From assembly GCA_021802825.1 (NCBI GenBank), contig JAJZRG010000008.1, forward strand, positions 16,715-80,714: a stretch of DNA of 64,000 nucleotides, read 5' to 3'. Origin of the DNA: Chloroflexota bacterium. GTDB taxonomy: Bacteria; Chloroflexota; Limnocylindria; Limnocylindrales; CSP1-4. The notes under the pieces are model-generated. The model was not told where the DNA came from and made no database searches. It saw nothing but the letters and a program-made list of their open reading frames with translations. Made by a program: the position numbers and the translations under genes. Every line of letters begins with the position of its first letter. Position 1 is the stretch's first letter. Shown here one piece after another: positions 9,312 through 53,840 of the stretch.

Positions 9312-10409
9312 ATGACCGCCACCTTCCCCGCCCCTGGGCCGCTCGCCCAGGCTCGCCTGGCCGCCGCGCAGGAGCCTGTCGAGGAGACCGCGATCTCGGT
9401 CAGGGGACTGTGGAAGATCTTCGGGCCCGGCGAGCACAAGATCATCGGCACGCGCCTGGCGGACCTCTCGCGTGACGAGCTACGGCTCGCGAGCGGCTCC
9501 AACGTGGCAGTCCGGGACGTCAGCTTCGACGTCCGCCCGGGCGAGGTTTTCGTGGTGATGGGCCTGTCCGGCTCGGGCAAGTCCACCCTCATCCGCTGTC
9601 TGACACGCCTGATCGAGCCCACCGCGGGCGAGGTGCTCCTCGACAAGGAGGACATCGGCAAGGCGTCCCAGGCTCGCCTGCGCGAACTGCGGCGCCACCG
9701 CTTGTCCATGGTGTTCCAGCACTTCGGCCTGCTGCCCCACCGGCGCGTCATCGACAACGTGGCGTTCGGCCTCGAGATCCGTGGCGAGCCCAAGAAGGCG
9801 CGCCGCGACAAGGCGGCGCACATGCTGTCCCTGGTCGGTCTCGAGGGCCAGGAGATGCGCTACCCGGACCAGCTCTCGGGCGGCATGCAGCAGCGGGTCG
9901 GCCTCGCCCGGGCGCTCGCCGTGGACCCCGAGGTCATGCTGTTCGACGAGCCGTTCAGCGCGCTCGACCCGCTCATCCGGCGCGACATGCAGAACGAGGT
10001 CATCCGGCTCCACCACGAGGTGGGCAAGACGATGATCTTCATCACCCACGACCTCGCTGAGGCGCTCAAGCTGGGCGACCACGTCGCGATCATGCGGGCG
10101 GGCGAGATCGTCCAGATCGGCCGGCCCGAGGAGATCGTCGGCGCCCCCGCGGACGACTACGTGGAGGACTTCGTCCAGGACGTGCCCAAGTCGTACGTCC
10201 TGACGCTGGGCTGGATCATGCGCGAGGTCCGCCCCGAGGATCGCCTCGACGGTCCGGAGTTCCCGTCCGCGACCGTCATCCGCTCCGCGGTCCACGCTGC
10301 GGCCACGGCGGACGGGCCGATCAAGGTGGTCGATGACGGGAAGCTGGTCGGCATGGTCGACCGGCGGCTGATCCTGTCCGCGATCGCCGGCACCGAGCCT
10401 GAGGCGTGA
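9312..10409 (+). CDS. Glycine betaine/proline betaine ABC transporter ATP-binding protein (ProV/OpuAA-type with C-terminal CBS pair)
   Basis: Walker [10 protein letters not shown], signature LSGGMQQR, Walker B MLFDEP, and a CBS-like tail. ATG 9249 is an alternative start. Confidence 0.9.
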
Positions 10410-12367: not shown

Positions 12368-12555
12368 AGGGCCATAGCGTCGGCAGGTGTCCCCCGGACT
12401 GCCCGCCGCCAAGCAGGAGGAGCCACGGTCACCCAGATCGATCAGCCCGGGGAACGGGCATGGGGGAGTCGCAGCGCAACAGGGCGCAACGCGGCATCAT
12501 GCGTCGACCGGCCGAAGGAGGAGCTTGGGCCGGACCGGAAGGAAGGGGTATTGGC

Positions 12556-13659
12556 TTGAATCTCGGAGACAGCACCGTGCGACGGCTGGCCGCTGGCGCG
12601 GCGGTCGTGGCAATCCTCGTGTCGGCGTGCACTGGCACCGCCGCCTCCCCGTCCGCGGCAGCGACTGCTGCTCCCACGACGGCCGCCTCTGGGGCGCCGT
12701 CCACGCCCGCGTCCCAGGCCGCCTCGACGGCCCCCAGCCAGGCAGCCGCCTCGATGGCACCCTGCGGGACCGTGAACATCGCCGACAACGCGTGGGTTGG
12801 CTACGAGGCGGACGTCGCCGTCGTGGCCTACCTGCTCAAGAACCAGCTGGGCTGCACGGTCAACATCAAGAACATCAGCGAGCAGGTCAGCTGGCAGGGT
12901 TTCCCGACCGGCGAAGTGGATGTGATCCTCGAGAACTGGGGCCACGAGGACCTGGCCGCGAAGTACATCACCACCGACAAGACCGCCGTTGACCTGGGCT
13001 CCCAGGGCAATGTCGGCATCATCGGCCTGTTCATGCCCAAGTACTACCTCGACACGCATCCCGACCTCGTCGCAGCGCAGGGCAAGGACCCGAAGACGGT
13101 CGCGGCCGCGCTCAACGCCGTGGCGGCCGACTTCAAGACCTCCGAGTCGGGCGACAAGGGCCAGATCCTCGACGGCGACCCGTCCTACGTCACCAATGAC
13201 GAGGGCCTGGTGGCCGGCCTGGGGCTCAACTACAAGGTCGTCTACTCCGGCTCCGAGGCTGCCTCTGACACAGCCATCAAGGCCGCGGTCGATGCCCAGA
13301 AGCCGATCTTCGCCTATTACTGGGAGCCGAACTGGTTCGACAGCCAGATCAACAACGCCATGGTCCAGTTCAAGCTCACGCCCTACACCCCGGGCTGCGA
13401 CAAGAACCCCAAGAATCTGACCTGTGACTACCCGCCGTACAACCTGAACAAGGTCGCCTCGACCAAGTTCGTCAACAGCGGCAGCCCGGCGGTCACGCTG
13501 ATCAAGAACTTCAAGTGGACCAACGACGACCAGAACGCGGTCGCGACCGACATCTCACTCAACAAGATGAGCGACGACGACGCGGCCAAGAAGTGGCTGG
13601 ACGCCCACCCGGACGTCTGGAAGGCGTGGCTGGCCGGCACCGGCTGGACCGGCAGCTGA
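12556..13659 (+). CDS. Glycine betaine ABC transporter substrate-binding lipoprotein (OpuAC family)
   Basis: Lies in the frame of ORF 10663..13659. TTG 12556 is preceded by a GGAAGGGG Shine-Dalgarno; GTG 12577 and ATG 12499 are alternative starts. Signal peptide with lipobox LVSAC, an Ala/Pro/Ser/Thr-rich linker (sequence AASPSAAATAAPTTA), then an OpuAC-type domain. Confidence 0.85.
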   Translation: MNLGDSTVRRLAAGAAVVAILVSACTGTAASPSAAATAAPTTAASGAPSTPASQAASTAPSQAAASMAPCGTVNIADNAWVGYEADVAVVAYLLKNQLGCTVNIKNISEQVSWQGFPTGEVDVILENWGHEDLAAKYITTDKTAVDLGSQGNVGIIGLFMPKYYLDTHPDLVAAQGKDPKTVAAALNAVAADFKTSESGDKGQILDGDPSYVTNDEGLVAGLGLNYKVVYSGSEAASDTAIKAAVDAQKPIFAYYWEPNWFDSQINNAMVQFKLTPYTPGCDKNPKNLTCDYPPYNLNKVASTKFVNSGSPAVTLIKNFKWTNDDQNAVATDISLNKMSDDDAAKKWLDAHPDVWKAWLAGTGWTGS

Positions 13660-13676
13660 TCTCCTGACCCAATCGG

Positions 13677-13709
13677 ACGGCCCCGGGCTCCTCGCGGAAC
13701 CGGGGCCGT
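13677..13709 (+). terminator. GC-rich stem-loop downstream of the betaine transporter operon (intrinsic-terminator-like, no U tract)
   Basis: ACGGCCCCGG (13677-13686) pairs perfectly with CCGGGGCCGT (13700-13709) around a 13-nt loop. It starts 18 nt after the stop at 13659. Confidence 0.5.
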
Positions 13710-13754
13710 TCCGCGTTCCGGCGCCTGTTCCGCGGCCGGATGGCGAGGCTGCAA

Positions 13755-13793
13755 TGCGCGGGAAAATGCGCGGGACAAGGTCCCTGCGCGGGA
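13755..13793 (+). promoter_or_regulatory. Three direct copies of TGCGCGGGA upstream of the M23 peptidase gene
   Basis: Exact 9-mers at 13755-13763, 13767-13775 and 13785-13793. A TAGACT -10-like hexamer follows at 13808-13813. Confidence 0.35.
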
Positions 13794-13955
13794 GTTGATC
13801 TGGCTGCTAGACTGCCAAGAGCGCCGGTTCACTGTCGTCTCGGGCGTGCCCTTCCGAGGCGGCGCCGTATCTGGCGAGTCGTAGCTGAGCATCCAGACGC
13901 CGAGGGGCGTGGACGATGACGGAGACAGCTCGCACGAGATGAGGACGCCTCTTCG

Positions 13956-15311
13956 TTGACCCGCACCGTCGCCCAGCACTTTCCCCGAGCCCGCCGTGGT
14001 ATCGGTCGCCGCACCATCACCGCCTTGCTCATCGTGCCGATGCTGATGGGCCTGTTCGCCGGTCATGTCGCGGCGCCGTCGCCCGCCTACGCTGATCAGC
14101 TGTCCGATGCGCAGGCGCAGAAGAAGGCGATCGAGGCCAGGATCGCGGCCGAGAAGTCGCAGATCGCCTCCCTCAACGCGTCCCAGGCCGCGCTGTCCAC
14201 CCAGATCGACCAGACCAAGACGCGGCTCGCCGGCATCGCGCAGAACCTCGCTGACACCCGCAAGCAGGTCGCCGCCCTGTCGGCCGACCTGGCCAGTGTC
14301 AAGGCGCAGTACAACGCGCTCGTGGCGAGCCTCGCGGACCTCGACACCCAGCTGGCGACCATCGAGGCGCAGGAGGCGGCCAAGCGGGTCGAGCTGGGTC
14401 AGCACCAGGCCGAGCTGGCTGAGCGCATCCGCGTGGCGTACGAGGACCAGCGCACCTCGATGCTCGAGACGCTGCTCTCGGGGGCGTCCTTCACCGACAT
14501 GCTCGCCGCGATGTCCACCCAGCTCGACGCCGCGGCCCAGGACCAGCAGCTCGCGCAGCAGGTGGCGTCCGACCAGGCGACCCTGCTCTCGCTCCACCAG
14601 ACGGTCTCCGAGACCCGTGACCAGACCAACCTCCTGGGCCAGCAGGCGGCCGTCCAGAAGCAGGCGCTGGACCGCAAGATCGCCGCGCTCGCGGCAGCGA
14701 CGAAGCGCCTCCAGGCGCTCGAGAAGGCCGCCAAGGCGGCGCTCGCGGCGCAGAAGGCCGCGTGGGCCCAGGTGTCGGCCAACAAGGCGGCCCTGCGCGC
14801 GTCCCTCGCCAAGGCCAGCTCTGCCCGCGCGCAGCTCCAGAAGAAGATCAACTCGATCATCGCGGCCCAGGCGAGCCACGGGAACATCCCGAGCCAGTAC
14901 AACGGCACGCTGGGCTGGCCCATGGGCGGGACGATCACGCAGCCCTTTGGCTGCACCGGGTTCTCCTGGGAGCCGCCCTACGGCAGCTGCGCCCACTACC
15001 ACAACGGGATCGACATCGTCGCGCCCTACGGGGCGCCGGTCCGCTCGGCTGGCGCCGGCACGGTGGTCTACGTCGGCTGGAACTATGCCGATGGAGCGGA
15101 CCCGGCGTGGATCGTCATCATCGCGCACAGCTCCTCGCTCGTGACCTGGTACGCGCACATGCAGCCCACGTACCCCGTCCGTGCCGGTGACCACGTCAGC
15201 CGGGGGCAGACGATCGGCTACGAGGGCAGCACCGGCCACTCGACCGGGGCGCACCTCCACTGGATGGTGGAGTTCAACGGGGTGTTCGTTAATCCGCTTC
15301 TGTTCACCTAG
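13956..15311 (+). CDS. M23-family peptidoglycan metalloendopeptidase with long N-terminal coiled coil (EnvC-like architecture)
   Basis: 451-aa ORF with a TTG start. Signal/TM segment, about 300 aa of Ala/Gln/Leu-rich heptad-like sequence, and a C-terminal LytM domain with HYHNGIDI and [10 protein letters not shown] zinc motifs. Confidence 0.85.
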
Positions 15312-35539: not shown

Positions 35540-38404
35540 ATGGCCGCCTTCACGGCTCGCCTCCGCCGGGCGATCGGCGGTGAGGTGCGCGACGACCGCG
35601 AGATCCGCGCGCTGTACAGCTCGGACGCCTCGAACTACCGGGTGCTCCCGGCCGTGGTGGCGGCGCCGGCGACGGTGGACGAGCTTGCTACGACTGTCGC
35701 GTTGGCTGTCGAGGCGGGCGTGCCGCTCACGATGCGCGGTGCCGGGACGAGCATCGCGGGCAACGCGATCGGTCCCGGGCTGGTCGTGGACGTCCGTCGG
35801 CACCTGGGCGGGATCCTGGACCTCGACCCCGTCGCGATGTCCGCGACGGTCCTGCCCGGGACGGTGCTCGACGAGGTCAACGCGGCCGCCGCCCCGCACG
35901 GCCTGCGCGTGGGCCCAGACCCGTCCACCCACGACCGGGCGACCGTGGGCGGCATGGTGGGCAACAACGCCTGCGGCTCGCACTCCGTGCGGTGGGGGAC
36001 GACGGCCGAGAACCTGATCGGGCTCGAGGTGGTCACGGCCGGGGGCGCGCGGCGACGGCTGGGCGCGCTGGGGCCGACGGCGCCGGGGGCGAGGGAAGGG
36101 CCCGGCTCGGCCATCGAGGCGCGCATCCGTGACGTGTACGCCTGCCACGGGGAGCGGATCCGGCGCGAGCTCCCGCCCTGGCCCCGGCGCGTGAGCGGTT
36201 ACGCGCTCGACTGGCTCCTGCCCGAGCGCGGCGCGGACGTCGCACGAGCGCTCGTGGGCACGGAGGGCACCTGCGCGGTCGTGTCGGCGGTGACGCTGCG
36301 GCTGGTGCGCGTCCCGGCGGTCAAGGGGCTGCTGGTCCTGGCGTTCGCCGACGATGTGGCCGCTGCGGCAGCGGTGCCGGCCCTGCTCGCGCAGCGGCCG
36401 CTCACCGTCGAGAGCCTGACGCCCGAGGTGCTGGGCGCCAACGCGGCGACGCTCGCGCCCAGTCTGGGCCTGCCGACGGGAGGCGCCTGGCTGCTGGTCG
36501 AGAGTGCGGGCGATGACGCAGCAGCGATGCGCGACCACGCCACACGCCTGGCGGCGACGCTCGGCACGGCGCCCGGCCGGCAGGACGCCGCCCTGCTCGA
36601 GGGGCTCGGCCCCCAGCGGGCGCTGTGGCGGGTGCGGGAGGACGGCGCCGGACGATCCGCGCGGCTGCCCGGTGGCACGCCGGCGTGGCCGGGCTTCGAG
36701 GATTCGGCTGTCCCGCCCGACCGCCTCGCGGCGTACCTGCGCGAGCTCCGCGCGCTCCTTCGCGACCACGACCTGCGCGGCATCACGTACGGGCACTTCG
36801 GCGAGGGCTGTATCCACCTGCGGGTGGGCTTCGGGCTGGACCGGCCGGGCGGCACCGAGCGGCTCACGGCGTTCATGGAGGCGGCGTCCGACCTCGTCGT
36901 CGCCCACGGCGGCACGCTCTCCGGCGAGCACGGCGACGGGCGGGCGCGTGGCGCGCTGCTCGGGCGCCAGTACAGCGCGCCGATGCTGGCGGCGTTCCGC
37001 GACTGGAAGGCAGCCTGGGATCCCGCCGGCCTCCTGAACCCCGGGATCATCGTGGACCCCCTGCCGATCGATGCCGAACTGAGACGGCCGCGGCCCACGC
37101 TGCTCGCGCTCGATCCAGCGCAGGCGTTCGAGGCCGACGGCGGCGACCCGCGCAGCGCGATGGAGCGGTGCATCGGGGTGGGGAAGTGCGTGTCGGGGCT
37201 CGGGAGCGCCGCCATGTGTCCCTCCTATCGGGCGACGGGCGAGGAGCGCGAGTCCACGCGCGGCCGGGCGAGGCTGCTCCAGGAGATGGCCGCGGGGTCG
37301 CTCGCCGAGACAGGCTGGGGGAGCCCGGAGGTGCTGGCCGCGCTCGACCTGTGCCTGTCGTGCCGCGCCTGCCTCGCGGACTGCCCGACCGGCGTGGACA
37401 TGGCCACCCTCAAGGCCGAATTCCTCCACCATCACTACCTCGGCCGGCGCCGGCCGCGTGCCCACTACCTGCTGGGCCGCCTGCCGATGTGGCTGCGCCT
37501 CGCGCGCCGCGTCCCGGCCGGGCCGCGACTGGTCAACGCGCTCACGGGGTTCGCGCCCACGCGCCGGCTGGGGGCGCTCGTCGGCGGGCTGGCGGGCGAG
37601 CGGCGGATCCCCGAACTGGCACGGCGCACGTTCGTGCAGGCGTTCCGGGCGCGCGCCGGAACGGCGTCCGCGGCCGCATCGCCTGCCGCTCGCCCCCGCG
37701 TCGTGCTGTGGCCCGACACGTTCACGAACCACCTGGCGCCGGGCGTCGGCGATGCGGCGGTCCGTGTCCTCGAGGCGGCCGGGTTCGACGTGGCCATCCC
37801 GGAGGACGACGTGTGCTGCGGGCTCACCTGGCACACGACGGGCCAGATCGACGGTGCGCGGCGGGTGCTGACCAGGACGCTGGCGGCCCGCGGGCTCGAT
37901 GGCGAGGAGCCCGTCGTCGTCCTCGAGCCCTCCTGCGCGACGATGCTCCGCCGCGACCTCAAGGCCCTGCTGCCCGAGGACCCGCGCGTCCGCGCCCTCG
38001 CGACGCGCGTGACCACGCTCGCCGAGCTCCTCGACCGCGTCGGCTGGCAGCCCCCGCCCGGCCCGACCGTGCACGCCCTCGTGCAGCCGCACTGCCACCA
38101 GCAGGCCGTCCTCGGCGACGCGGCTGACCGGCGGCTGTTGGCCGCGGCGGGCATCGAGGCCGATGCCGTGCTGACGGGCTGCTGCGGCATGGCCGGCAAC
38201 TTCGGCGCGGAGGCTGGGCACGAGGCCATCACCCGCTCCGTCGCCGAGCTCGGGCTCCTCCCGGCGCTCCGCGCCGCCACCGAGGGCACCGAGATCCTCG
38301 CCGACGGGTTCTCGTGCCGCACGCAGGTGGCCTTCCTGGGCGGCCGGCAGGCCCGGCATCTCGCCGAGATCCTCGCTGAGCGCCTCGGCCCGGAGGAGCG
38401 CTAG
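35540..38404 (+). CDS. FAD-linked oxidase fused to a (Fe-S)/CCG-domain protein (GlcD-GlcF-type fusion; D-lactate/glycolate-type dehydrogenase)
   Basis: ATG 35540 lies within ORF 34685..38404. FAD-binding PCMH domain (RGAGTSIAGNAIG), ferredoxin-type motif CLSCRACLADCP, and CCG motifs (VCCGLTWH, GCCGMAGNFG). Confidence 0.85.
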   Translation: MAAFTARLRRAIGGEVRDDREIRALYSSDASNYRVLPAVVAAPATVDELATTVALAVEAGVPLTMRGAGTSIAGNAIGPGLVVDVRRHLGGILDLDPVAMSATVLPGTVLDEVNAAAAPHGLRVGPDPSTHDRATVGGMVGNNACGSHSVRWGTTAENLIGLEVVTAGGARRRLGALGPTAPGAREGPGSAIEARIRDVYACHGERIRRELPPWPRRVSGYALDWLLPERGADVARALVGTEGTCAVVSAVTLRLVRVPAVKGLLVLAFADDVAAAAAVPALLAQRPLTVESLTPEVLGANAATLAPSLGLPTGGAWLLVESAGDDAAAMRDHATRLAATLGTAPGRQDAALLEGLGPQRALWRVREDGAGRSARLPGGTPAWPGFEDSAVPPDRLAAYLRELRALLRDHDLRGITYGHFGEGCIHLRVGFGLDRPGGTERLTAFMEAASDLVVAHGGTLSGEHGDGRARGALLGRQYSAPMLAAFRDWKAAWDPAGLLNPGIIVDPLPIDAELRRPRPTLLALDPAQAFEADGGDPRSAMERCIGVGKCVSGLGSAAMCPSYRATGEERESTRGRARLLQEMAAGSLAETGWGSPEVLAALDLCLSCRACLADCPTGVDMATLKAEFLHHHYLGRRRPRAHYLLGRLPMWLRLARRVPAGPRLVNALTGFAPTRRLGALVGGLAGERRIPELARRTFVQAFRARAGTASAAASPAARPRVVLWPDTFTNHLAPGVGDAAVRVLEAAGFDVAIPEDDVCCGLTWHTTGQIDGARRVLTRTLAARGLDGEEPVVVLEPSCATMLRRDLKALLPEDPRVRALATRVTTLAELLDRVGWQPPPGPTVHALVQPHCHQQAVLGDAADRRLLAAAGIEADAVLTGCCGMAGNFGAEAGHEAITRSVAELGLLPALRAATEGTEILADGFSCRTQVAFLGGRQARHLAEILAERLGPEER

Positions 38405-38471
38405 AGCAGCGAGGCGGCGGGTGCCGCCTAGGCCGCGCCGGTCGCCTACTCGCGCGCGAATCGCGAGGGGG

Positions 38472-38517
38472 TTGGGGGTGCCCTACGGGCTCGAGCCGGT
38501 GACCTTCGGAGCCACAA
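38472..38517 (-). repeat. Degenerate copy of the 3' half of tRNA-His (distal att-type repeat of an integrated element)
   Basis: 38499-38517 is identical to 43828-43846 (19 nt, GTGACCTTCGGAGCCACAA). The adjoining ~29 nt match the tRNA T-arm and acceptor 3' strand with 3 substitutions and 2 indels by my manual alignment. Confidence 0.75.
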
Positions 38518-38636
38518 CAGCTGGCTCCGTCTGCTCACAGCCAACGTGAGTGTCTGCCGCCTGCCGAACTAGCCGAGGCAGCGAAGCTCCAAGCGGCCCG
38601 GCTTCGACCCGCTCTGCCAGATGTCGTACAGCCGCG

Positions 38637-38888
38637 TCATCCCGTCGATCGCGCCTGGACTGGGAAGCCGAAGTAGTGGCCGCAGGCTGCGAAGCCCATC
38701 GTCGACTCGCAGTGCTCGTGCGTCGCGACCTGGCACTGGCGGACGAAGTGCTCCTCGTCGTGGTGGTGCAGCGCCCGTTGGTAGTCCGGGGTCCGGTGTC
38801 TCAGCTCGAAGGCGTACTCGGCACGCACGAGCTCGTGGGCCGGAAAGGCCCTCCACCGCTCGAAGACGTCGAGCTCTGAGCGGCCCAA
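38637..38888 (-). CDS. Hypothetical His/Cys-rich small protein (possibly truncated)
   Basis: 83-aa ORF with ordinary protein-like composition (…ALHHHDEEHFVRQCQVATHEHCES…ACGHYFGF). No family recognised. The adjacent reading frame continues protein-like to 38569, so a frameshift is possible. Confidence 0.35.
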   Translation of the reverse strand: MGRSELDVFERWRAFPAHELVRAEYAFELRHRTPDYQRALHHHDEEHFVRQCQVATHEHCESTMGFAACGHYFGFPVQARSTG

Positions 38889-38928
38889 ATGCCTGTAACG
38901 TCAAGCCGATGCCATCCGTATTGACAGT

Positions 38929-39507
38929 GTGCAGAGCGAATTGGCGATGGTTAGTGACCGAGATTGCGTCATCGATGCGGCATTTCGCGCTCATGCCGCG
39001 GAGGTATATCGGCTGGCGTTCGCGGTTGTGAGGGAGCAGCAGGCCGCCGAGGATGTGACGCAGGAGACCTTCGCCCGCGCATACGAGCGCTTCGCGACGT
39101 ACGATCCCGGCCGGCCGATCATGGGGTGGCTCCACGCGATCGCAACCCACCTGGCGATTGACCGCGTCCGACACGACAGGGTCCGTCGCTGGGTCGGCCT
39201 CGGCGAGCCGCGTCTGATCATGCCCAGAGATGCCACGGCGGCTGACGGCTTCGCCGGCATCGCGGAGCGTGACGCGGTCGCTCGCCTCCTGGGAGTGTTG
39301 CCAGCGAGGACGTGCGCGATGCTCGTGCTGCGCCACGCCTACGGCTATGACGACCGCTCGATCGCCGATCTCGTCGGGACCTCGCCGGGGAATGTCCGGA
39401 CCCAGGTCTCGCGCGCCCAGCAGCGGCTGCGGTCAGTCCTCGCTCAGCCGCGCGAGCCAGGGGGAACGGCCATTGCAGATCGGAGAGGCCACGATGGCGA
39501 ACGGTGA
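38929..39507 (+). CDS. ECF (group 4) sigma-70 family RNA polymerase sigma factor
   Basis: Region 2 (AEDVTQETFARAYERF...WLHAIATHLAIDRVR) and region 4 HTH (DDRSIADLVGTSPGNVRTQVSRAQQRL). ATG 38947 is an alternative start. Confidence 0.85.
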   Translation: MQSELAMVSDRDCVIDAAFRAHAAEVYRLAFAVVREQQAAEDVTQETFARAYERFATYDPGRPIMGWLHAIATHLAIDRVRHDRVRRWVGLGEPRLIMPRDATAADGFAGIAERDAVARLLGVLPARTCAMLVLRHAYGYDDRSIADLVGTSPGNVRTQVSRAQQRLRSVLAQPREPGGTAIADRRGHDGER

Positions 39508-41026
39508 GCCCGGCGGGCGTGTGGCGGTCACCCCCGGTCAGGAACCTGACGACGGGCAGGTCGGCCGCGCCGTCGCTGCGTATGTCGAGTCGGTCCGGGT
39601 CCCAGTCGGCCTCCTCGAGGCCGACTGGAGGTCGAGGCGCAGGCTGAGGCTCGCCTGGGCCGGAGCGAGTCCCGGCACGAGTCGCCGTGCTAGTGGACTC
39701 ACGGCTCTCGCCGCCGTGGCGGCGGTGTCCGTAATTGCGGTCGTGATCGGCCTCGCCGGTCGCCAGCCGCTGCCGGAGGCCGCGTCCGCGCCGGCGGGTG
39801 GCACCCTGCCGCCCTTCTCGGCCTCGATCCCGAGCGTGTTGCTGTCTTCCTTGTCGCCAGCACCCTCCTCAGTGTCGCCCAGCATCCAGGCGGCGCCAGC
39901 GCTGGGTGGGGCTGCCTGGTTCTCCATGGCCGGCTTCGGCGGCTGTCCCGCCAACTCGACTTCGGAGCCGCTCAGCGCCTGCTCCGGGACGACCAAGGCC
40001 GTGCCTGGGTCGCTGGAGCTGTTCGCGGGCACTCTCGACGGCAGGACTACCCTGCATGTCACGCGCTCGCTGCCGGTGTCAGCCCACCTGTGGGTCGGGC
40101 GCGGTTCTCAGCCCGACGCTGCCGGCCCCTTCGACGGCAAGGTGCTCTACAACCTGTTCGACGGCTCCCGCTCCGAGCTCCACGTAGTCGACGCCGCGAG
40201 CGGTAGCGACGAGACGGTGGTCACGACCGACAACGTCGTCTACAACGCTGTCCTGGACCCGTCGTCTGGCACGGTTTTCTTCGGCCAGCTCGATCCGTCA
40301 ACGCGCCACGACCTTGGGGTATGGCGGGTCCGCCTCGGCGGCTCCGCGCAGCCCGAGCTGTTCGTCCGGGCCGCCGCCCACAACTACGGCGGTTCGTGGC
40401 AGTGGAGCCGCACGTTGCTGATCACCCCCAGCGGCAGCCGCCTCTTGATCCGCGATTGCCAGGACGCCTCGTGCGATGTGAGCGTCTTCGCGACGGGGGA
40501 CTCGCATCTCATCTCCTCGGCCAATGGGCTGCGCGACGATGCGGTGTTCGGGGTGACTGACGCCTCCCTCGTCGGCATCCTGGCCTGCGCCGGGTCACCG
40601 TGCGGGGTGAGCTCTCTTGACCTGGCTTCCGGGCAGGTCCGCACCTTGACGGATGACCCCTGCGCGCTCAGTGGAACCGGTGTCCTCGCGGCCCGCACCG
40701 ATGGCACTCCCGTCCTGCTCGTCTCATCGCCAAACCGGGCAGGTTGCCCGTCCGCCGGAAGCGTCCTCGCGCTCGAGCTCACCGGCTCCTTGCCAGAGGT
40801 GGTCTGGGGGCCAGGCGCCGAAGACCCCAACACTGGGGGATCGCTGTCGCTCGCCCTCAAGGAGCACGGCTCCCAGGGATACGAGGTGCCCGATGGCTGG
40901 CTCCTGGTGGCGCCGAACCAGGAGTTGGCGCTTACCAACCACACTGGCTCTCTCGTGCCCCAGCTCATCAGCCTGTCTGGCGGAGGGTCCGTCTCATTGT
41001 CGGTCCAGCCGACCTTCGCGCACTGA
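39494..41026 (+). CDS. Single-pass membrane protein with large extracytoplasmic domain; putative anti-sigma/sensor partner of the ECF sigma factor
   Basis: ATG 39494 overlaps the sigma-factor gene by 14 nt. TM helix ALAAVAAVSVIAVVIGLAG, then a ~400-aa C-terminal beta-rich domain. No HxxxCxxC zinc anti-sigma motif. Confidence 0.55.
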   Translation: MANGEPGGRVAVTPGQEPDDGQVGRAVAAYVESVRVPVGLLEADWRSRRRLRLAWAGASPGTSRRASGLTALAAVAAVSVIAVVIGLAGRQPLPEAASAPAGGTLPPFSASIPSVLLSSLSPAPSSVSPSIQAAPALGGAAWFSMAGFGGCPANSTSEPLSACSGTTKAVPGSLELFAGTLDGRTTLHVTRSLPVSAHLWVGRGSQPDAAGPFDGKVLYNLFDGSRSELHVVDAASGSDETVVTTDNVVYNAVLDPSSGTVFFGQLDPSTRHDLGVWRVRLGGSAQPELFVRAAAHNYGGSWQWSRTLLITPSGSRLLIRDCQDASCDVSVFATGDSHLISSANGLRDDAVFGVTDASLVGILACAGSPCGVSSLDLASGQVRTLTDDPCALSGTGVLAARTDGTPVLLVSSPNRAGCPSAGSVLALELTGSLPEVVWGPGAEDPNTGGSLSLALKEHGSQGYEVPDGWLLVAPNQELALTNHTGSLVPQLISLSGGGSVSLSVQPTFAH

Positions 41027-41315
41027 TGCGCGAGCAGCAACCTGTCCGGCTTTCGGACGGGGCGCGTGAACCATCGCATGTTAGCGGCGTGACTGTATGG
41101 GCACGAACCCGCTGAACACGGCGGCGCTGAATGGAGACGTCGACGGCAAGGACGACCAGTTGGCGGATTCTGGTCTCGCAGTATGGACCCACGCTGCACT
41201 GACGTCTCGACGCAGTGGGGGTCATCTGCCCGGCCCTGGGGCTGGCGCTGCGCACTGGACGGGCTCGTCGAGGGCCCTCGGTGCTGGTGGTTGACAATCC
41301 CAGAGCACTCTCCCT

Positions 41316-41810
41316 GTGCTCTCAGGCCCTGTCGCACCTCCCCCGCCGCCCACCATCCCGGTGTCACGGACGTATCTGAACGCGATCAGCGTTCACTGGG
41401 CTGGGACATACAGCGCTCATCGGCCCGTTCCGCAGGCGGAGGGGCTCCACCAAGGCGGCGCCTGCTTGCTCCCGCCACGCCTCGGGCCGGGCTATAGGGG
41501 ATGGCCGCGGGCTGTTGGCACCGCGGACCTAGGGCCCAAGCTTGCCGCATCGCTTGTTTCCAACGGCATGAACTACTGCTACCCGCAAATGCTCTATCTC
41601 AACGACTACCACCGCGCCAACTACCCGGACCAGGCACGCAAAGAGGCACTGGTCTGCCACGAGCTTGGCCACACGATGGGCCTCGCCCACAGGTCCACGA
41701 CACCGATCGGCTGCATGCGCAACCCACCGATCGTGAGCTCAAGCACCTACTACAGCAGGCCTCAGGCGCACGACATCATGCACCTCGAGTATTTCTATTG
41801 GCCGCAATAG
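41316..41810 (+). CDS. Small metzincin-type zinc metalloprotease (HELGHTMGLAH), probably N-terminally damaged
   Basis: HExxHxxGxxH motif at about 41659-41691. No signal peptide. The same frame is open back to 41097 except for a single TGA at 41292. Confidence 0.5.
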   Translation: MLSGPVAPPPPPTIPVSRTYLNAISVHWAGTYSAHRPVPQAEGLHQGGACLLPPRLGPGYRGWPRAVGTADLGPKLAASLVSNGMNYCYPQMLYLNDYHRANYPDQARKEALVCHELGHTMGLAHRSTTPIGCMRNPPIVSSSTYYSRPQAHDIMHLEYFYWPQ

Positions 41811-41822
41811 GGGGAATGACCG

Positions 41823-42443
41823 ATGAGAGTCCGACGCCTTGCCAGACGCGCGGCGATGTCGTGGCCAGTTATCGCAGCCACCGTGCTCCTGGCCGGCGGC
41901 GTGTTGATCTTTGGAATCCTGGGACGTCCCTCACCTGGCACGACATCAGACACTTTTTGGAACAGCCTCTGGGTGAACGGAACATTCCAGACTTACCCTG
42001 ATGCGGGTCTGGCAGTGGACGCATCTGACGTGGTGGTCGTCGGCCGCTTCGCGTCGGTGGACAAGGGTAGGACGGCCAATGCCGCGCCCGAGTTGGGCCC
42101 GGATGGCCTGCTGTCGTTCGCCAAGGTCCGCGTCAAGGTCGAGGTCGTATTGGCTGGCAGCTACACGCCTAATGCCGATGGCACCCTCGGTCTTGAGCTC
42201 TTTCTGCCCGAGGCTTCGGCGCTGGAGGTCATGGTGGCGAACACGCCCGGCGAGAGGACGCTCCTATTCCTAAGGGCGTCTCCATCAGGGGGCAATGATG
42301 CGTACGCGCTCCTGAACCCCGAGGCTCTTGTACGCGACCTGCCAGGGAGTCAGACCGTCTCATGGGCTGAAGAGCCATGGCTGCTCGCCCTGGGCCGCCT
42401 GCCATTCGACTCAGTTGTTGACTCGGTCCGTGCCGAATCGTAG
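41823..42443 (+). CDS. Hypothetical membrane-anchored/secreted protein
   Basis: 206-aa ORF preceded by a GGGGG Shine-Dalgarno-like run. N-terminal signal-anchor WPVIAATVLLAGGVLIFGIL. No recognised domain. Confidence 0.5.
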   Translation: MRVRRLARRAAMSWPVIAATVLLAGGVLIFGILGRPSPGTTSDTFWNSLWVNGTFQTYPDAGLAVDASDVVVVGRFASVDKGRTANAAPELGPDGLLSFAKVRVKVEVVLAGSYTPNADGTLGLELFLPEASALEVMVANTPGERTLLFLRASPSGGNDAYALLNPEALVRDLPGSQTVSWAEEPWLLALGRLPFDSVVDSVRAES

Positions 42444-42681
42444 TGGAGCAGCCTTCCGCTCCGCGAGAGGTCTCGCACCGAGCCATTTCATGGGACTTCC
42501 AAGCCGAGACGGTAGGACGAATACGCATCTCGCGCCCTCATGCTGGATGCGCTGCCTCGCTCGCGTCGCGCTCCCACGCGTGTAAGGCCAAGGCCACGTC
42601 GAGCCGCACACCAGCAAGGCGATGTCGAGGTTGGTCAGGCCGGCCAGTGCCCGGCACCAGGCCGGCTCCCCTCGTCGGTGC

Positions 42682-43544
42682 TCAGATCCGGTCCCCCGGG
42701 CTCCGTTTGCGGTAGGCCTCCCGGGCCCGCTCGTCGGCCGCCGAGGCGCCGTAGCGGCTGAGCATCTGGCGGCTCTTCCAGCCGGCGAGGCGGATGAGGT
42801 CGCCCTCCGTGCCGCCGTCGGCGAGCCGCATGTGGGCGTAGGTGTGGCGGAACTGGTGGGGTGGAGGCCGGGCAGCCCGGCCACGGCGCCGCGGCGCCGG
42901 AGCACCTGGAGGACGCCGCTGTCGGTGAGGACGCCCCGCGCTCCCAGCCAGAGCTCCTCGCGCCCGGCCTGCGGGTGCGACGCACGCGCCCTCAGGTAGC
43001 GCGACCGCCTGGGCGGTCCTGCTGCCGAATGGGCAGGTCCTCCGTCCCGGCGCAGGCGTCGAGGATCGCCCTGATCTGCTCCGGCCGCAGGATCGGCAGC
43101 GGCTCCTCGGGGACGACGGGCGGGATCACTCCGAGGCCAGGCGGGACACCGCCCTGGTCCGGTGCTCCTCGACACTGCAGGCAGCGGTAGCCGAGCGAGA
43201 GCGTCACCGGGCGCGATCCGGCGTTCTGCAGGGCGACCAGGGACGCGTCGACGGGCTCCCGCGGGATCCCCCGCGAGCGAGCCCGGCATGCCGCGCCGGG
43301 CTGCGAACGCCTGGGACCGCGTCGCCGCGTCGAGGCAGGTCTTGATGGCGGCCGGGCTGCGATTCGCGGCACGGAGGCTGAGGCGCCAGCTGTCGATCGC
43401 CGCCCGGAGCCGGAGTAGCTCAGTTGGCAGGGCGGGAGCCTTCCACACCCTGTCCGAGGTGCGCAAGAAGTGCGCCGGCGGACGCTCTGTCGCGGGGCTG
43501 GCTGCGGCGCGCGGAGGAGCCGAAGCCGGGCTCGTCGCGCCCAC
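42682..43544 (-). pseudogene. Tyrosine recombinase/integrase, disrupted (frameshifts plus internal deletion)
   Basis: Own translation shows the pieces in three different minus-strand frames. The N-terminal SAM-like segment is ELLRLRAAIDSWRLSLRAANRSPAAIKTCLDAA. The middle segment is VPEEPLPILRPEQIRAILDACAG. The C-terminus is HQFRHTYAHMRLADGGTEGDLIRLAGWKSRQMLSRYGASAADERAREAY...*, with its stop at 42682-42684. Confidence 0.8.
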
Positions 43545-43801
43545 CGCCGGGCGCGGGGCAGCCTCAGGACGCGCGCTCGCAGACCATCGCGGCGAGCATC
43601 GCCCGGCTCGCGTCGCCGGCGCTGATCTCGCCGCGCGCCGCCTGCCCGGGCTGCCGACCCCCGGCAGACAGGCCTCGCGGGCATCACTTCGCCAAGGACG
43701 GTCAGCAGAGCCAATGGGTCAGTGACACTTTCCCCGGCGACATCGGGCGACGCCCTGCGACACGCCGCGGTCTTGGATCGCGCGTGGGATCAGGGGGGAG
43801 T

Positions 43802-43878
43802 TGGGGTGGCCTACGGGGCTCGAACCCGTGACCTTCGGAGCCACAATCCGATGCTCTGCCAATTGAGCTAAGGCCACC
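43802..43878 (-). tRNA. tRNA-His (anticodon GTG)
   Basis: Manual fold of the reverse complement: G-1 + GTGGCCT acceptor, GCTC/GAGC D-stem, TCGGA/TCCGA anticodon stem with loop TTGTGGC (GTG), ACGGG/CCCGT T-stem with TTCGAGC loop, discriminator C and encoded CCA. Confidence 0.9.
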
Positions 43879-44114: not shown

Positions 44115-45122
44115 ATGACCGCCCTGCTCGGCCGCCACGAGAGCCGCCGCCGGCTCGCCCCACGACGGCTGATCGCACTCCTCGCCCTCGTGTTCGCGGC
44201 CAGCGCCGTGGAACTCGCGGCCGCCCCCGCGGCGATGGGCTGGGACGCGAACACGTTCAGTTCCACCTCCGAGGCGCAGCTGATCTCGCTCCAGAACCAG
44301 GCGCGGGTGTCGGGGGGCCTCCGATCGCTTCGACTCGACACGGCGCTGCGAACGATTGCGCGCTGGCGCAGCAAGGACATGATCGACCGGGACTACTTCT
44401 CGCACACGATCCTGGGCACGAGCCACAACGTGTTCTGGTACATGCAGTACAAGTACGGCTACTGCTTCAAGCTCGCGGGCGAGAACATCGGGACGGTCAC
44501 CTGGCCCGGGGCGTCGGAGGCTGACGCCACCAGCTGGATCTTCAACCAGTTCATGAACTCGGCGGGCCACCGCGCGAACATCATGGGCAAGGCCTGGGAC
44601 GTCGTGGCCGTCGGGGCCTACAAGGGAACCGGCGACACGTTCATGTGGACCGCCCTGTTCGTCCAGTCGTGCTCGGCCGCGCCCGCGCCCACGCCGAAGC
44701 CCACGCCGAAGCCCACGCCGAAACCGACCCCGAAGCCGACCCCGAAGCCCGTGGTGACGCCCCGGCCAACCGCGCAGCCCACTGCGCACCCGACCGTCCG
44801 CCCCACGACTCGCCCGACGACCAGGCCGACGACGACCCCGACCGCGGCCCCCACCCCCACGCCCAGCCCGTTGCCCACGCCCAGCCCGTTGCCCACCCCC
44901 GGCGCGTCGCCGTCGCTCAGCCCCACCACGGGTCCGGACGACGGTTTGCTCGCGACTCCCGGTCCCGCCGCCTCCGAGACGGCCCCGCCGAGCGAGGTGC
45001 CGAGCGCGAGCGCGCCGCCGTTCATGCCGCCGGGAGGTCTGCAGATCAAGGACGCGCCGCCCGAGGGCGGTCTGATCGAGTCGATCCTCCAGGTGATCAC
45101 CGCCAGATTCTTCGGCGGATGA
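44115..45122 (+). CDS. Secreted CAP/SCP (YkwD-like) domain protein with long Pro/Thr-rich linker
   Basis: Signal peptide [24 protein letters not shown] motifs ([19 protein letters not shown]). Then (PKPT)5, (RPTT)3 and (PSPLPT)2 repeats. TTG 44097 is an alternative start. Confidence 0.8.
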
Positions 45123-50938: not shown

Positions 50939-52357
50939 CTAGTACAGCGACGGGAAGCGCGAGTGCCACCGGGAGGCGAAGTCGATGGGGCTCGCGGCGT
51001 CGATCGCGTCGAGCAGCTGGCGCGTGTGGGCCAGGCCGAGGCGGTGGGCCGCGAGGTAGCCGCGGATCGCCCGCCAGAAGGCCGTCGAGCCCATCAGCCG
51101 GCGCGCGTCGTCGATCAGGTTGCCGCCCTGGATGTAGATGTCCTCGTAGTAGCAGGCGGAGGAGTAGCGGTAAATCGGGAGGTCCAGCCGGGCGGCGGAG
51201 CACTGCGACGCCCGGCGCATGCCCAGCGCGTTGCGGGTGGCCATGTCGGTCATCGCCTCGTCCGCGAACGGCTCGCGCGCCTGGTCGTTGCCGACGAGGC
51301 CGAAGAACCACTGGTGCGCGATCTCGTGGGTCACCAGGTACGCGAGGTTCGACGAGGCCACGCGGGGAGGGATCCACACGGTCATCGGTCCCTCCATGCC
51401 GTACCCGCCCGCGGACTCGGAGACGGTCAGCAGGCTGTACGGGTACGGGCCGAGCCGCGCCTCGAGCCGGGTGAGGGCGGTCACGGCGGCGGACAGGACG
51501 GCGGCCGACGGGAAGCCCGAGCGCGAGACGACCCTGACCCTCGTGCCGTTGACGGTTGCCTGGCGGGTCGTGGCGTCACGGCTGGCGGTGACGACGAAGT
51601 CGCGGACGTTGGCGGCGTCGAACTTGGCGGTCAGGCCATCGGCCGAGAGGGCCGTGCGCGTGCCGGTCGTCGCCCAGCGCAGCGGGATGTCCGAGTGGAG
51701 GATCACGCGCACCGAGGGGCTCGACGGCGTGACGAAGGGGTCGCCGTAGTTCGGCCGGGCGAACGGCGTCGCCCGTGAGACCCAGGGGATCCAGCGGTAG
51801 AGGTCAGCTATGCCGTTCGCGCGGGCGAAGAGCCAGCTCGAGCCCGTGGTCGTCGTCCGCAGCGTGGCGCTGAAGCGAACGACAACGCCGACCGAGGCGC
51901 CGCTGGGCAGCACGCCGCCCAGTGGGACGCTGATCGTCTGGTCGCTCACGGTAGGGGTGACGGTGCGGCCGTCCACAGTGGTGCTGCCCAGGCGCAGCCC
52001 GCCCAGCCGTGCCATGACGGTGTTGAGCTCGATCCGGTCGATGCCGGAGGCCGACTCGTTCGTGGCTGCGATGGCCACCTGGCCCCAGAGGCGCCCCGAT
52101 CCCCATGCGAGCGACGCTCCCACACTGTAGGCCGCGCGGAGATGCATGGAGGAGCGGTTGACCGAGCCCGGGACGATCTGCGTCGTGCCGGCGGCACCGG
52201 CGCCCGATGACGGCAAGCGGAGGGGCGCCGAGACCCGCGTGTCCGCCGACGCCGACGCCGGCAGGCTCGCCGCAGAGGCCGGAGCCGGGACGCCGATGCC
52301 CGTGCCCACGAGCCCCACCGCGAGCGCAGCCGCCAGCACACCCCCACGGGTTCGCAT
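50939..52357 (-). CDS. Secreted M1-like zinc metallopeptidase (HEIAH-X18-E)
   Basis: Start MRTRGGVLAAALAVGLVG (signal peptide) at 52357 within ORF 50939..52516. HEIAHQWFFGLVGNDQAREPFADEA gluzincin motif. Confidence 0.8.
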   Translation of the reverse strand: MRTRGGVLAAALAVGLVGTGIGVPAPASAASLPASASADTRVSAPLRLPSSGAGAAGTTQIVPGSVNRSSMHLRAAYSVGASLAWGSGRLWGQVAIAATNESASGIDRIELNTVMARLGGLRLGSTTVDGRTVTPTVSDQTISVPLGGVLPSGASVGVVVRFSATLRTTTTGSSWLFARANGIADLYRWIPWVSRATPFARPNYGDPFVTPSSPSVRVILHSDIPLRWATTGTRTALSADGLTAKFDAANVRDFVVTASRDATTRQATVNGTRVRVVSRSGFPSAAVLSAAVTALTRLEARLGPYPYSLLTVSESAGGYGMEGPMTVWIPPRVASSNLAYLVTHEIAHQWFFGLVGNDQAREPFADEAMTDMATRNALGMRRASQCSAARLDLPIYRYSSACYYEDIYIQGGNLIDDARRLMGSTAFWRAIRGYLAAHRLGLAHTRQLLDAIDAASPIDFASRWHSRFPSLY

Positions 52358-52412
52358 GTCGCCCGAATCGTACGCCCGGCAGGGCGCGCGCCGGGTTGCG
52401 ATACTTCCGCGC

Positions 52413-53840
52413 ATGGCATCGGATGCGGTCGCGACTCCCAGCGCCCCGGTTCGCGGCAACGGGCCCGCGCTCCTGCGCGCGATCGAGGCGCGCCTGCCCG
52501 GCCTGCGCCTCCTCACCGACGCCGTGGACCGCGAGTCGTACCGGCGAGACGAGACGGCCTACCTCCCCACGGGCCTGCCGCTCGCCGTCACGCTGCCGGA
52601 GACGACGGAGCAGGTGGTCGAGCTGGTCCGCCTGTGCGGCGAGCACGACGTGCCCATCGTTCCCCGCGGGGCCGGCACCGGGCTCTCCGGCGGCGCGGCG
52701 GGCATCGAGGGCGCGCTGACCATCGCGTTCACGCGCATGAACCGGGTGCTCGAGATCGACCGCGCGAACCTGGTCGTGGTCACGCAGCCGGGCGTCGTCA
52801 ATGCCGACCTCAAGAAGGCCGTGGCGGCCGAGGGGCTGTTCTACGCGCCCGATCCCGCGTCGTACGAGACGTGCACGATCGGGGGCAACCTGGGCACGAA
52901 CGCCGGCGGGCTGTGCTGCGTGAAGTACGGCGTGACGCGCGACGCGGTGCTCGGCCTCGAGGTGGTCATGGCCGACGCCTCCGTGCTGCGGTTGGGCGGC
53001 CGGAACGTCAAGGACGTGGCCGGCTACGGCCTGATCCCGCTGCTCGTCGGCAGCCAGGGGACGCTCGGCCTGGTCACCGAGGCCACGCTCCGGCTCCGGG
53101 CCGCCCCGCCGCCGCGCGCCACCCTGCTGGCGTTCTTCGCCACCCTCGACGCCGCCGGGGACGCCGTCGCCATGATCACCGGGGCGGGGATCGTGCCGGT
53201 GACGCTCGAGCTGATGGACCGCACGACCATCCGCGCCGTGGACGACGTCCACCACCTGGGGCTCGATCGTGATGCGGCCGCCATGCTGCTCGTCGAATCG
53301 GACCTGCCGGGGACCGCCGCCGTGGTGGAGGTGGACAGTGCCGAGAGGGCGTGCGCGGCCGCAGGGGCGAGCCTCGTGGTGCGGGCACAGGATGCGACCG
53401 AGGCCGAGTGGCTGCGCGAGGGGCGACGCCTCGCCTACCGCGCACTCGAGGCGCAGGGCGTGGCGCGGATGGAGGACGTGGGCGTGCCGCGGAGCCGGGT
53501 GCCGGAGCTGCTCCGGGCCATCGAGGCGATCGGCGCGCGCCACGAGATTGCCATCGGGACCTTCGGCCACGCCGGTGACGGGAACCTCCACCCGACGTTC
53601 GTCCTGCGTCGCGACGAGCCTGAGGCGACCGCGGCTGCCCGCCTCCACGCGGCTCGGATCGACCTGTTCGAGGCGGCGCTCGCGCTCGGCGGGACGGTGA
53701 CGGGCGAGCACGGGATCGGCGTCGTCCGACGCGACTGGCTCGTGCGCCAGCGGGGCGAGCCGGCGGTCGCGGCGATGCGCGCCATCAAGTGCGCCCTCGA
53801 CCCCCAGGGTCTCCTGAATCCCGGCCGCGTCCTCGCCTAG
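52413..53840 (+). CDS. FAD-linked oxidase (glycolate oxidase subunit GlcD / D-lactate dehydrogenase-like)
   Basis: ATG 52413 lies within ORF 52146..53840. FAD-binding PCMH domain (PRGAGTGLSGGA) and a C-terminal GEHGIG motif. Confidence 0.88.
   Translation: MASDAVATPSAPVRGNGPALLRAIEARLPGLRLLTDAVDRESYRRDETAYLPTGLPLAVTLPETTEQVVELVRLCGEHDVPIVPRGAGTGLSGGAAGIEGALTIAFTRMNRVLEIDRANLVVVTQPGVVNADLKKAVAAEGLFYAPDPASYETCTIGGNLGTNAGGLCCVKYGVTRDAVLGLEVVMADASVLRLGGRNVKDVAGYGLIPLLVGSQGTLGLVTEATLRLRAAPPPRATLLAFFATLDAAGDAVAMITGAGIVPVTLELMDRTTIRAVDDVHHLGLDRDAAAMLLVESDLPGTAAVVEVDSAERACAAAGASLVVRAQDATEAEWLREGRRLAYRALEAQGVARMEDVGVPRSRVPELLRAIEAIGARHEIAIGTFGHAGDGNLHPTFVLRRDEPEATAAARLHAARIDLFEAALALGGTVTGEHGIGVVRRDWLVRQRGEPAVAAMRAIKCALDPQGLLNPGRVLA

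Follow-up and report, generated by a model that had tools for sequence, protein, structure and literature searches.

Genomic islands inserted in tRNA genes (tDNA islands) are described in the Islander collection as carrying an intact tRNA gene at one end, while the other end has a displaced, directly oriented fragment of the 3′ part of that gene (Hudson et al., 2015; PMC4383910). Crossover in the anticodon loop, a tyrosine-recombinase gene lying next to the tRNA, atypical composition and absence from relatives are further characteristics of these islands. The anticodon-loop location is sublocation 'A' of tDNA islands (see also Williams, 2002). Here, we analyse a locus that resembles these islands in all of these respects. 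It lies at positions 38408–43794 of a 64,000 nt stretch of contig JAJZRG010000008.1 from an uncultured Chloroflexota bacterium (the whole stretch is referred to below as the window) and is probably the fossil of an integrative island that entered the gene for tRNA-His. An intact tRNA gene, a displaced 3′ fragment in the same orientation downstream of it and a deviant composition are all present; the tyrosine-integrase gene is present only as a pseudogene.

The tRNA-His(GTG) gene is intact and lies on the minus strand at 43802–43878. It is called by both ARAGORN and Rfam at 43802–43877 (Rfam score 68.1 bits), and direct reading of the sequence confirms that G-1 (43878) and the terminal CCA (43802–43804) are encoded, as stated in a preliminary description of this DNA. 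It is the sole tRNA found by ARAGORN in the window. Together with the adjacent trailer, the 3′ part of the gene forms the tRNA-proximal copy of a direct repeat (43789–43846, minus strand), which is contained within the tRNA-plus-trailer element 43789–43878. The distal copy (38460–38517, minus strand), obtained from a repeat search and gapped alignment, consists of a decayed copy of the tRNA (38472–38517) and about 12 nt of trailer. Over 58 nt the two copies are 79% identical without gaps. At its start the repeat coincides with tRNA position 32, with which the anticodon loop opens, and it continues through the CCA end and some 12 nt into the trailer, such that 38472–38517 corresponds to tRNA positions 32–76 on the same strand, 5.3 kb downstream from the tRNA's 3′ end.

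The core of this repeat is the 19-mer GTGACCTTCGGAGCCACAA; a search of the window that tolerates up to three mismatches finds it at these two places only. Its expected count is 0.01, and none of 100 shuffled sequences contains two matches. The gapped alignment of 38472–38517 with 43802–43846 gives 41 identities in 47 columns, with three substitutions as well as indels in the T arm and the acceptor stem. The displaced fragment has thus diverged by about 13% (about six changes in 47 aligned positions). The reading of the left repeat as a fortuitous resemblance has nothing in its favour beyond the high GC content of the genome. It is effectively refuted by the 19 nt exact match within a 58 nt repeat, its chance level and the expectation value obtained for the repeat with blastn-short (E = 2 × 10⁻⁸). 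The degenerate same-orientation copy of the tRNA 3′ half noticed in the preliminary description is therefore real.

A perfect 7 bp dyad, CGGAGCC-N9-GGCTCCG, was read directly at 38506–38529, where it spans the junction between the distal repeat and the island. Folded as DNA, it has a predicted energy of −10.1 kcal/mol (z = −2.57), and three of 200 shuffled sequences are equally stable. With one half derived from the tRNA and the other from the arm of the island, the dyad is a candidate core-type site for a recombinase. If the island were to excise, the circular junction is predicted to join the 43847 side to position 38518, i.e. GGAGCCACAA to CAGCTGGCTCC.

The limits of the island follow from comparison with the related genome L097. 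In blastn the window is collinear with L097 up to 38407 and again from 43795, and the block specific to the window is therefore 38408–43794. Its GC content is 0.671 (67%), compared with 0.722 (72%) for the window and 0.74–0.78 for the flanks. The dip to 0.60–0.70 spans 38.5–42.5 kb, with 0.74–0.78 on either side, and is therefore wider than the 41.3–42.5 kb originally judged by eye. The open reading frames (ORFs) of the island have a GC content at third codon positions (GC3) of 0.71–0.84, compared with values above 0.9 in the flanking genes. A filter for host-like coding sequence (GC3 > 0.85) is passed by 33 ORFs of the window (GC3 0.85–0.96), none of which lies inside the island. The tetranucleotide distance, calculated in a 2 kb sliding window, reaches z = 3.5–4.7 at 40–42.5 kb, the sole peak above 2 in the 64 kb window. 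The windowed GC and tetranucleotide calculation proposed earlier as a check thus gives a clear shift (z up to 4.7). A scan of the island for σ70 promoters and intrinsic terminators returned no sites. Elsewhere in the window, a weaker secondary tetranucleotide deviation is seen in the region 10000–15000, with z up to 2.0 at 12.5–14.5 kb.

At the tRNA-proximal end of the island lies the remnant of a tyrosine recombinase of an XerC/D-like 315-residue family (42684–43415, minus strand), recognized by six-frame reading and by tblastn and blastn against the intact homologue P0001 on contig L089. The preliminary description had a tyrosine-recombinase reading frame here. The recombinase sequence is indeed present, but it is not one frame: its pieces are spread over three minus-strand frames from 43415 to 42684, and no single frame reaches significance in Pfam. 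A reconstructed protein of 250 amino acids has 3048 recombinase matches (XerC/D-like, about 315 residues), the best at 68% amino-acid identity. The segment 43040–42684 is 90% identical in nucleotide sequence to P0001/L089 and retains the HxxR motif and the catalytic tyrosine box, while 43415–43041 is 80% identical with 17 gaps. The pseudogene contains at least three frameshifts, and a 144 nt deletion has taken out the Arg-I box (DTGMRRGE in P0001). Beside this deletion, a 49 nt piece of the gene (encoding ...EARRDTALVR) is inverted at 43128–43175, which points to a small inversion-plus-deletion rearrangement and not to a simple deletion. The 5′ end is also absent, with the first ∼57 nt and the upstream spacer missing. 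The C-terminal HQFRHTYAH...SRY box is present, and no frame holds the complete catalytic set R-K-H-R-(H/W)-Y. Judged by these lesions, the enzyme must be taken as dead. Its relatives are labelled 'XerD' by JGI; the intact ones adjoin tRNA genes and are accompanied by mobile-element cargo, and are therefore not housekeeping Xer genes. Neither a second integrase nor an excisionase was found in the segments 38518–38928, 42443–42700 and 43447–43801, using Pfam with E values up to 1 and PHROGs.

The chromosomal context could be compared with that of relatives through the gene on the left flank, which encodes an oxidase with FAD-binding, Fe–S and CCG domains (35540–38404, plus strand; Pfam FAD_binding_4, FAD-oxidase_C, Fer4_8 and CCG). 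A genome scan with this conserved chromosomal gene indicates that the host is a Limnocylindrales-like member of the Chloroflexota known only from metagenome-assembled genomes (MAGs). The oxidase is 86–87% identical in amino-acid sequence to its orthologues in L096, L097 and L098, upstream synteny is kept, and the stop codon of the gene is where synteny with the relatives breaks off. In the sister species L097 and L098 (oxidase 86% identical) the order is oxidase, tRNA-His (minus strand), CAP-domain protein, ABC ATPase, FtsX permease and BioY, and the gap between oxidase and tRNA-His is only 1.25–1.33 kb. The 3′ half of tRNA-His is identical in the window and in both sister species, and the entire tRNA is identical in L097. 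The gap of L097 and L098 lacks all four cargo genes and contains neither a tRNA-His repeat nor a called integrase. The preliminary description had asked whether all relatives carry the same genes with no compositional shift; the sister species lack the cargo and the shift is clear. Each of them has a single gene in this slot with a host-like GC content: a DUF1638 gene in L097 (slot 12818–14068; GC 0.73) and an α/β-hydrolase gene in L098 (slot 10233–11560; GC 0.75).

Wider sampling gives a similar picture. The four cargo proteins have no match in 13 Chloroflexota loci (L001–L013), the oxidase-bearing loci found among species-representative genomes. Of these, only L008 has a tRNA-His within 10 kb; there the tRNA-His/CAP pair lies 8.7 kb downstream of the oxidase, with ordinary genes between and neither integrase nor repeat. 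In L096 (87%) unrelated pca-type genes follow the oxidase. Other genes also follow it in L001–L007, and neither these loci nor L096 have a tRNA-His within 10 kb. In this clade the 3′ side of tRNA-His is occupied by a slot of variable content, which fits an integration hot spot without being proof of one.

This variability is also the basis of an explanation without any site-specific insertion, in which a hypervariable slot takes up new content through illegitimate or homologous recombination, the fragment of tRNA-His is a local duplication or rearrangement and the integrase debris is unrelated. The content of the slot differs in every relative (the DUF1638 gene, the hydrolase gene, the 8.7 kb in L008 and other genes in L096 and L001–L007), no repeats or integrase are seen in the slots of the relatives, and the oxidase stop codon is the synteny breakpoint in several of them. 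Because the slot is so variable, we keep this explanation in consideration, at a low likelihood. It does not account for a repeat that begins exactly at the anticodon loop, in the right orientation and on the right side and with the trailer included, nor for the dyad symmetry across the junction, the integrase remnant at the tRNA-proximal end and a compositional shift confined between the repeats. Jointly, these features are the standard signature by which tDNA islands are mapped (PMC4383910). We accept site-specific integration at tRNA-His because the starting point, orientation and side of the repeat are correct, the trailer is included and the dyad spans the distal junction. Summed over the two scenarios discussed below, we give it a probability of roughly 0.8.

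Several observations weigh against the explanation favoured below, a composite island integrated at tRNA-His. The preliminary description had predicted an empty site in relatives, with the oxidase gene directly followed by tRNA-His. In the genomes compared no strictly empty site was found, and the slot of L097 and L098 is occupied by a different single gene in each. A scan of JGI metagenome contigs for the empty-site pattern (the codons of the oxidase motif GFSCRTQ, a gap of 167–197 nt and an intact tRNA-His anticodon region) likewise returned no match. The similarity of the trailer among the copies is ambiguous as to which copy is native. The integrase region has a host-like GC content of 0.757 and does not share the compositional anomaly of the cargo, and the island contains no trace of a second integrase. 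Finally, no search retrieved an intact copy of the island or an integrase specific for tRNA-His; scans of IMG/VR with the closest integrase and with the reconstructed attP (element-borne attachment site) junction gave nothing relevant.

Within the species, the locus is uniform. Six contigs from different samples or assemblies (L095 and L100–L104) are 98.98–100% identical in nucleotide sequence to the window (L100–L104, 99.4–100%; L095, 98.98%) and match it wherever they overlap. The left junction is common to all six, and the distal repeat is identical in each. Past this junction, four of the contigs continue into the island, L100 crosses it to beyond tRNA-His, and L095 only reaches the junction itself. 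L100 shows no differences across the island, and the other contigs show only a handful in and around it. The island thus appears to be fixed in the sampled same-species population and, from its absence in L097 and L098, would be younger than the split from these sister species. Up to 46765 there are three differences between L100 and the window in 16.8 kb, followed by about 10% divergence over the last 1 kb of L100 (46766–47772), which lies in an FtsX-like permease gene. Either a patch of recombination or the chimeric end of a metagenome contig would account for this. A step in divergence at the tRNA, which had been considered for L100, was rejected, as the divergence is confined to this 1 kb patch at the contig end.

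The integrase remnant has a second tRNA fragment next to it. An orphan 5′ half of a tRNA-Gly(TCC) gene, identified with a 22 nt pattern and by alignment, abuts the pseudogene at 43409–43446 (plus strand). It spans the 5′ strand of the acceptor stem, the D arm, the 5′ strand of the anticodon stem and the loop as far as CTTCCA, and the identity ends at the anticodon loop. The 22 nt pattern has one match in the window, compared with none expected, and the fragment is 90–92% identical to the tRNA-Gly 5′ halves beside all of the intact homologous integrases. Neither a 3′ half nor a second copy of tRNA-Gly is present in the window. An 11 nt D-arm-like match at 38609–38619 was considered as a second tRNA-Gly relic and rejected as a chance match (E = 0.8, wrong orientation). 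Between the tRNA-Gly half and the tRNA-proximal repeat lies a spacer of about 340 nt (43447–43788) with a host-like GC content of 0.75, in which no gene is recognized and which has no match in the fetched loci. A comparison of the 355 nt spacer sequence and the inner island ends with the full set of fetched loci gave the tRNA-Gly half as the only match.

The same association is found in the relatives of the integrase. The closest intact ones are 56–68% identical in amino-acid sequence, with nucleotide identities of 80–90% for the best. Among the five closest homologues with a context open to examination, four have the integrase next to the 5′ end of tRNA-Gly(TCC) or to an orphan 5′ half. In P0002 and P0009 an intact, divergently transcribed tRNA-Gly(TCC) lies 125–200 nt from the start of the integrase gene. 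For P0018 (locus L091) the neighbour is an orphan 5′ half of tRNA-Gly, at a distance of about 160 nt from the start, and the contig of P0001 opens with a partial tRNA 5′ half, 125 nt away from where the integrase gene starts. Where annotated, the cargo downstream of these integrases is of the AbiE, Fic or PRiA4 type. No tRNA-His-like sequence occurs in the loci of related integrases that were examined, and where a tRNA adjoins the integrase in them it is tRNA-Gly(TCC) or its orphan 5′ half. That the integrase is the cognate enzyme of the tRNA-His site, as first read, is not evident: its lineage adjoins tRNA-Gly(TCC), it has its own tRNA-Gly 5′ half at 43409–43446, and it does not match the att site that bounds the island.

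Two further loci illustrate this element type. In L090 (3304–4411) an orphan 5′ half of tRNA-Gly precedes a truncated integrase of 212 residues (P0038) by about 430 nt, and the locus has no intact tRNA; decayed copies of the tRNA-Gly element type therefore recur. In L091 (7308–10951), from a Chloroflexota MAG, a tandem array is found at tRNA-Gly(TCC). It starts with the intact tRNA-Gly, the spacer and the first 38 nt of an integrase gene, followed by a 2.45 kb cassette without integrase that encodes an extracytoplasmic function (ECF) σ factor and a Kelch propeller. Beyond the cassette lie an orphan 5′ half of tRNA-Gly, the spacer once more and an integrase gene that is intact and has AbiE and Fic cargo. 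From this array it follows that recombination by the integrase lineage takes place in the anticodon loop, with duplication of the tRNA-Gly 5′ half. The arrangement also suggests that integrase-less ECF σ cassettes are mobilized in trans, or left by deletion, at tRNA-Gly sites.

The remnant in the window thus carries what looks like its own, unrecombined attP, yet the island is bounded by 3′ halves of tRNA-His. One way to reconcile the two is a single element with a retargeted integrase, which moved from tRNA-Gly (5′ half) to tRNA-His (3′ half, other strand) and for which the tRNA-Gly half is the fossil of a former attP. The geometry viewed from the integrase gene is the same at both sites: the duplication covers the part between the anticodon loop and the nearest tRNA end, and the integrase points away from the tRNA. 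The pseudogene occupies the classical tRNA-proximal position, 387 nt from the 3′ end of tRNA-His, no second integrase remnant is found in the island, and, when written for one DNA strand, the two anticodon loops (CTTCCAA and GCCACAA) end in the same three bases. We nevertheless consider retargeting doubtful. All related loci with a tRNA beside the integrase have tRNA-Gly or its orphan 5′ half and none has a tRNA-His-like sequence. In addition, the C-terminal third of the pseudogene is 90% identical in nucleotide sequence to the P0001/L089 gene, which itself lies beside a partial tRNA 5′ half, and this leaves little room for a change in specificity. Nor is a mechanism documented here by which a further attP could be gained 350 nt from an older one.

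We favour instead, at somewhat better than even odds, a composite island in which the integrase and the tRNA-Gly half are a passenger fragment of a tRNA-Gly-type element, a scenario that we infer from the lineage association of the integrase. In this composite island, the incoming DNA would have entered the anticodon loop of tRNA-His by tyrosine-recombinase site-specific recombination and brought a fresh copy of the tRNA segment between anticodon loop and 3′ end, which kept the tRNA-His gene functional. The original 3′ half would have been displaced by 5.3 kb, to beside the oxidase gene, and would then have drifted. The integrase remnant and the orphan tRNA-Gly 5′ half would be the int–attP end of a second element, whose attP would not have been used for the insertion seen here; this element would come from the Chloroflexota lineage with tRNA-Gly(TCC) as insertion site and a duplication of that gene's 5′ half. 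The recombinase that acted at tRNA-His may have been deleted since or may have acted in trans; the integrase-less cassette of L091 indicates that such loss or trans action can happen. The island is now immobile, and the core of the preliminary description, an old and no longer mobile island beside tRNA-His, stands.

The cargo starts, next to the distal repeat, with an ORF on the minus strand (38637–38888) for a His/Cys-rich protein of 83 residues, which is divergent from the σ factor gene. It has a good coding signature (GC content by codon position 0.69/0.45/0.88) and is called in L100, without a significant match in Pfam or PHROGs. The gene that follows (38929–39507, plus strand) encodes an apparently intact group IV (ECF) σ factor. 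Pfam Sigma70_r2 (53 bits) and Sigma70_r4_2 (32.5 bits) are both above their cutoffs, as is TIGR02937 (60.2 bits versus a cutoff of 42.9), and the protein of about 190 residues consists of the σ2 and σ4 regions only. It is 62% identical in amino-acid sequence to the products of the σ factor genes of L105–L107.

The σ factor gene overlaps by 14 nt with the gene for its partner (39494–41026, plus strand), a protein of 510 residues that is full length compared with its homologues. The partner has a short cytoplasmic N-terminus, one predicted helix (residues 71–87), which we read as transmembrane in a single-pass protein, and a Cys-rich extracytoplasmic domain predicted to be a β-propeller. In the AlphaFold model the predicted local distance difference test (pLDDT) score is 69 overall and mostly 75–95 in the propeller, while the N-terminal 130 residues are of low confidence. 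The best Foldseek matches are the propellers of TolB and prolyl oligopeptidases (E = 6 × 10⁻¹⁰, template-modelling score 0.3–0.4). There is no Pfam or NCBIfam match for the partner, and the recognized anti-σ domains (ASD and ZAS) are not detected. The overlap with the σ factor gene and the single predicted helix suggest an anti-σ-like protein, and we refer to it as a putative anti-σ factor.

The partner family is tiny, with 15 matches in 5.8 billion proteins, and a metagenome scan with the anti-σ alignment returned a single locus. The closest homologues outside the species are 45–55% identical and 496–499 residues long. The 14 nt overlap also occurs in L106 and in the contig of P0243, and the pair is found at 62% (σ factor) and 49% (partner) identity in other high-GC genomes, in ordinary chromosomal contexts. 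No integrase is called in these homologous loci, and they contain no match to the metzincin or the membrane protein described below. As the pairs stand in ordinary chromosomal contexts, no donor element is identified. The distribution of the pair is that expected for a transferable two-gene unit that is not specific to one element.

The third plus-strand gene of the cargo (41238–41810) encodes the remnant of a matrixin-like metzincin from a family of small secreted proteins. It keeps the HELGHTMGLAH motif, the Met-turn and the C-terminal helix. Its 74 representative homologues, typically of 180–240 residues, align only to residues ∼58–161 of the window protein, the C-terminal ∼105 residues, which corresponds to positions 41490–41798. 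The N-terminal ∼125 residues of the family, including the signal peptide, are missing or scrambled, and with them the N-terminal β-sheet subdomain that, with the motif and the Met-turn, makes up a metzincin. Homology in tblastn starts at 41490, the conserved GWTRC reads GWPRA with loss of the cysteine, and no coding signal is seen at 41026–41400. Some homologues reach the cutoff of Pfam Peptidase_M10, while the window ORF scores below the threshold. On these grounds the ORF is regarded as a truncated pseudogene. Downstream of it, the gene at 41823–42443 (plus strand; called in L100 and L102) encodes a protein of 206 residues with a hydrophobic N-terminal anchor and no match in Pfam, NCBIfam or PHROGs. 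Its GC content of 0.63 is the lowest in the island.

The inventory of the cargo given in the preliminary description survives in large part: the ECF σ factor, its 'membrane partner', here the 510-residue single-pass protein with a predicted β-propeller, and the His/Cys-rich ORF are all borne out. For the metzincin the motif is as described and a Met-turn is present, but homology to the family is confined to the C-terminal ∼105 residues. The description of the island as a self-contained ECF signalling/protease module does not hold, as the σ factor/partner pair is intact but the metzincin lacks its N-terminal ∼125 residues. Selection appears to have kept the ECF σ factor, the membrane-anchored β-propeller partner and perhaps the two small genes, while the metzincin and the integrase decayed. 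A reading that goes further, in which the locus is a fossil of att-site retargeting and ECF σ/propeller cassettes are recurrent cargo of tRNA-half-duplicating elements in Limnocylindrales-like Chloroflexota, we regard as improbable.

In the flanking DNA three further observations were made. A distant paralogue of the left-flank oxidase (about 30% amino-acid identity) is encoded at 52131–53840, 14 kb downstream of the first FAD-binding oxidase. The CAP/YkwD-family gene just upstream of tRNA-His contains tandem repeats of 12 nt and 18 nt at 44670–44894, which encode a Gly-rich low-complexity stretch. The product of this gene is 81% identical to its L097 orthologue, compared with 95–97% for the next two genes.

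Among known systems, the σ factor and its partner compare best with pairs of ECF σ factors and membrane anti-σ factors, in which the σ factor gene overlaps the downstream gene for a single-pass protein with a large extracytoplasmic domain and the pairing is conserved elsewhere. They differ from these pairs in that no recognized anti-σ domain is seen in the partner and in the very small size of the partner family. What the island documents is probably the horizontal acquisition of an ECF σ factor with a β-propeller sensor partner, which was kept while the mobility and protease genes decayed. The integrase end of the island is like that of the XerD-like Chloroflexota islands that duplicate a 5′ tDNA half (L081, L083–L088 and L091), with an orphan tRNA-Gly 5′ half on the same side of the integrase, and the ECF σ factor with a β-propeller partner is also what is found in the integrase-less cassette of L091. 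Unlike the islands at tRNA-Gly(TCC), the window has no intact tRNA-Gly, the bounding repeats are 3′ halves of tRNA-His, and the spacer and the 5′ end of the integrase gene have been deleted.

Set against the Islander collection, in which 5′ tDNA fragments are the minority configuration (159 of 3919 islands) and 125 tandem arrays and 148 damaged islands are recorded (PMC4383910), the present island stands apart in four ways. Its integrase is multiply damaged, a second tDNA fragment (the tRNA-Gly 5′ half) lies inside it, the displaced fragment has diverged by about 13%, and no relative capable of excision is known. What is of interest here is a single mismatch: the integrase lineage belongs to tRNA-Gly and its 5′ half, the bounding repeats to tRNA-His and its 3′ half. 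This is a caution for island-calling pipelines, which could be misled when any nearby integrase is paired with any nearby tDNA fragment. Otherwise, the locus adds mostly housekeeping knowledge, as a domesticated island remnant in a poorly studied, uncultured high-GC lineage of the Chloroflexota. It is an ordinary decayed and domesticated tDNA island, and islands of this kind are already known.

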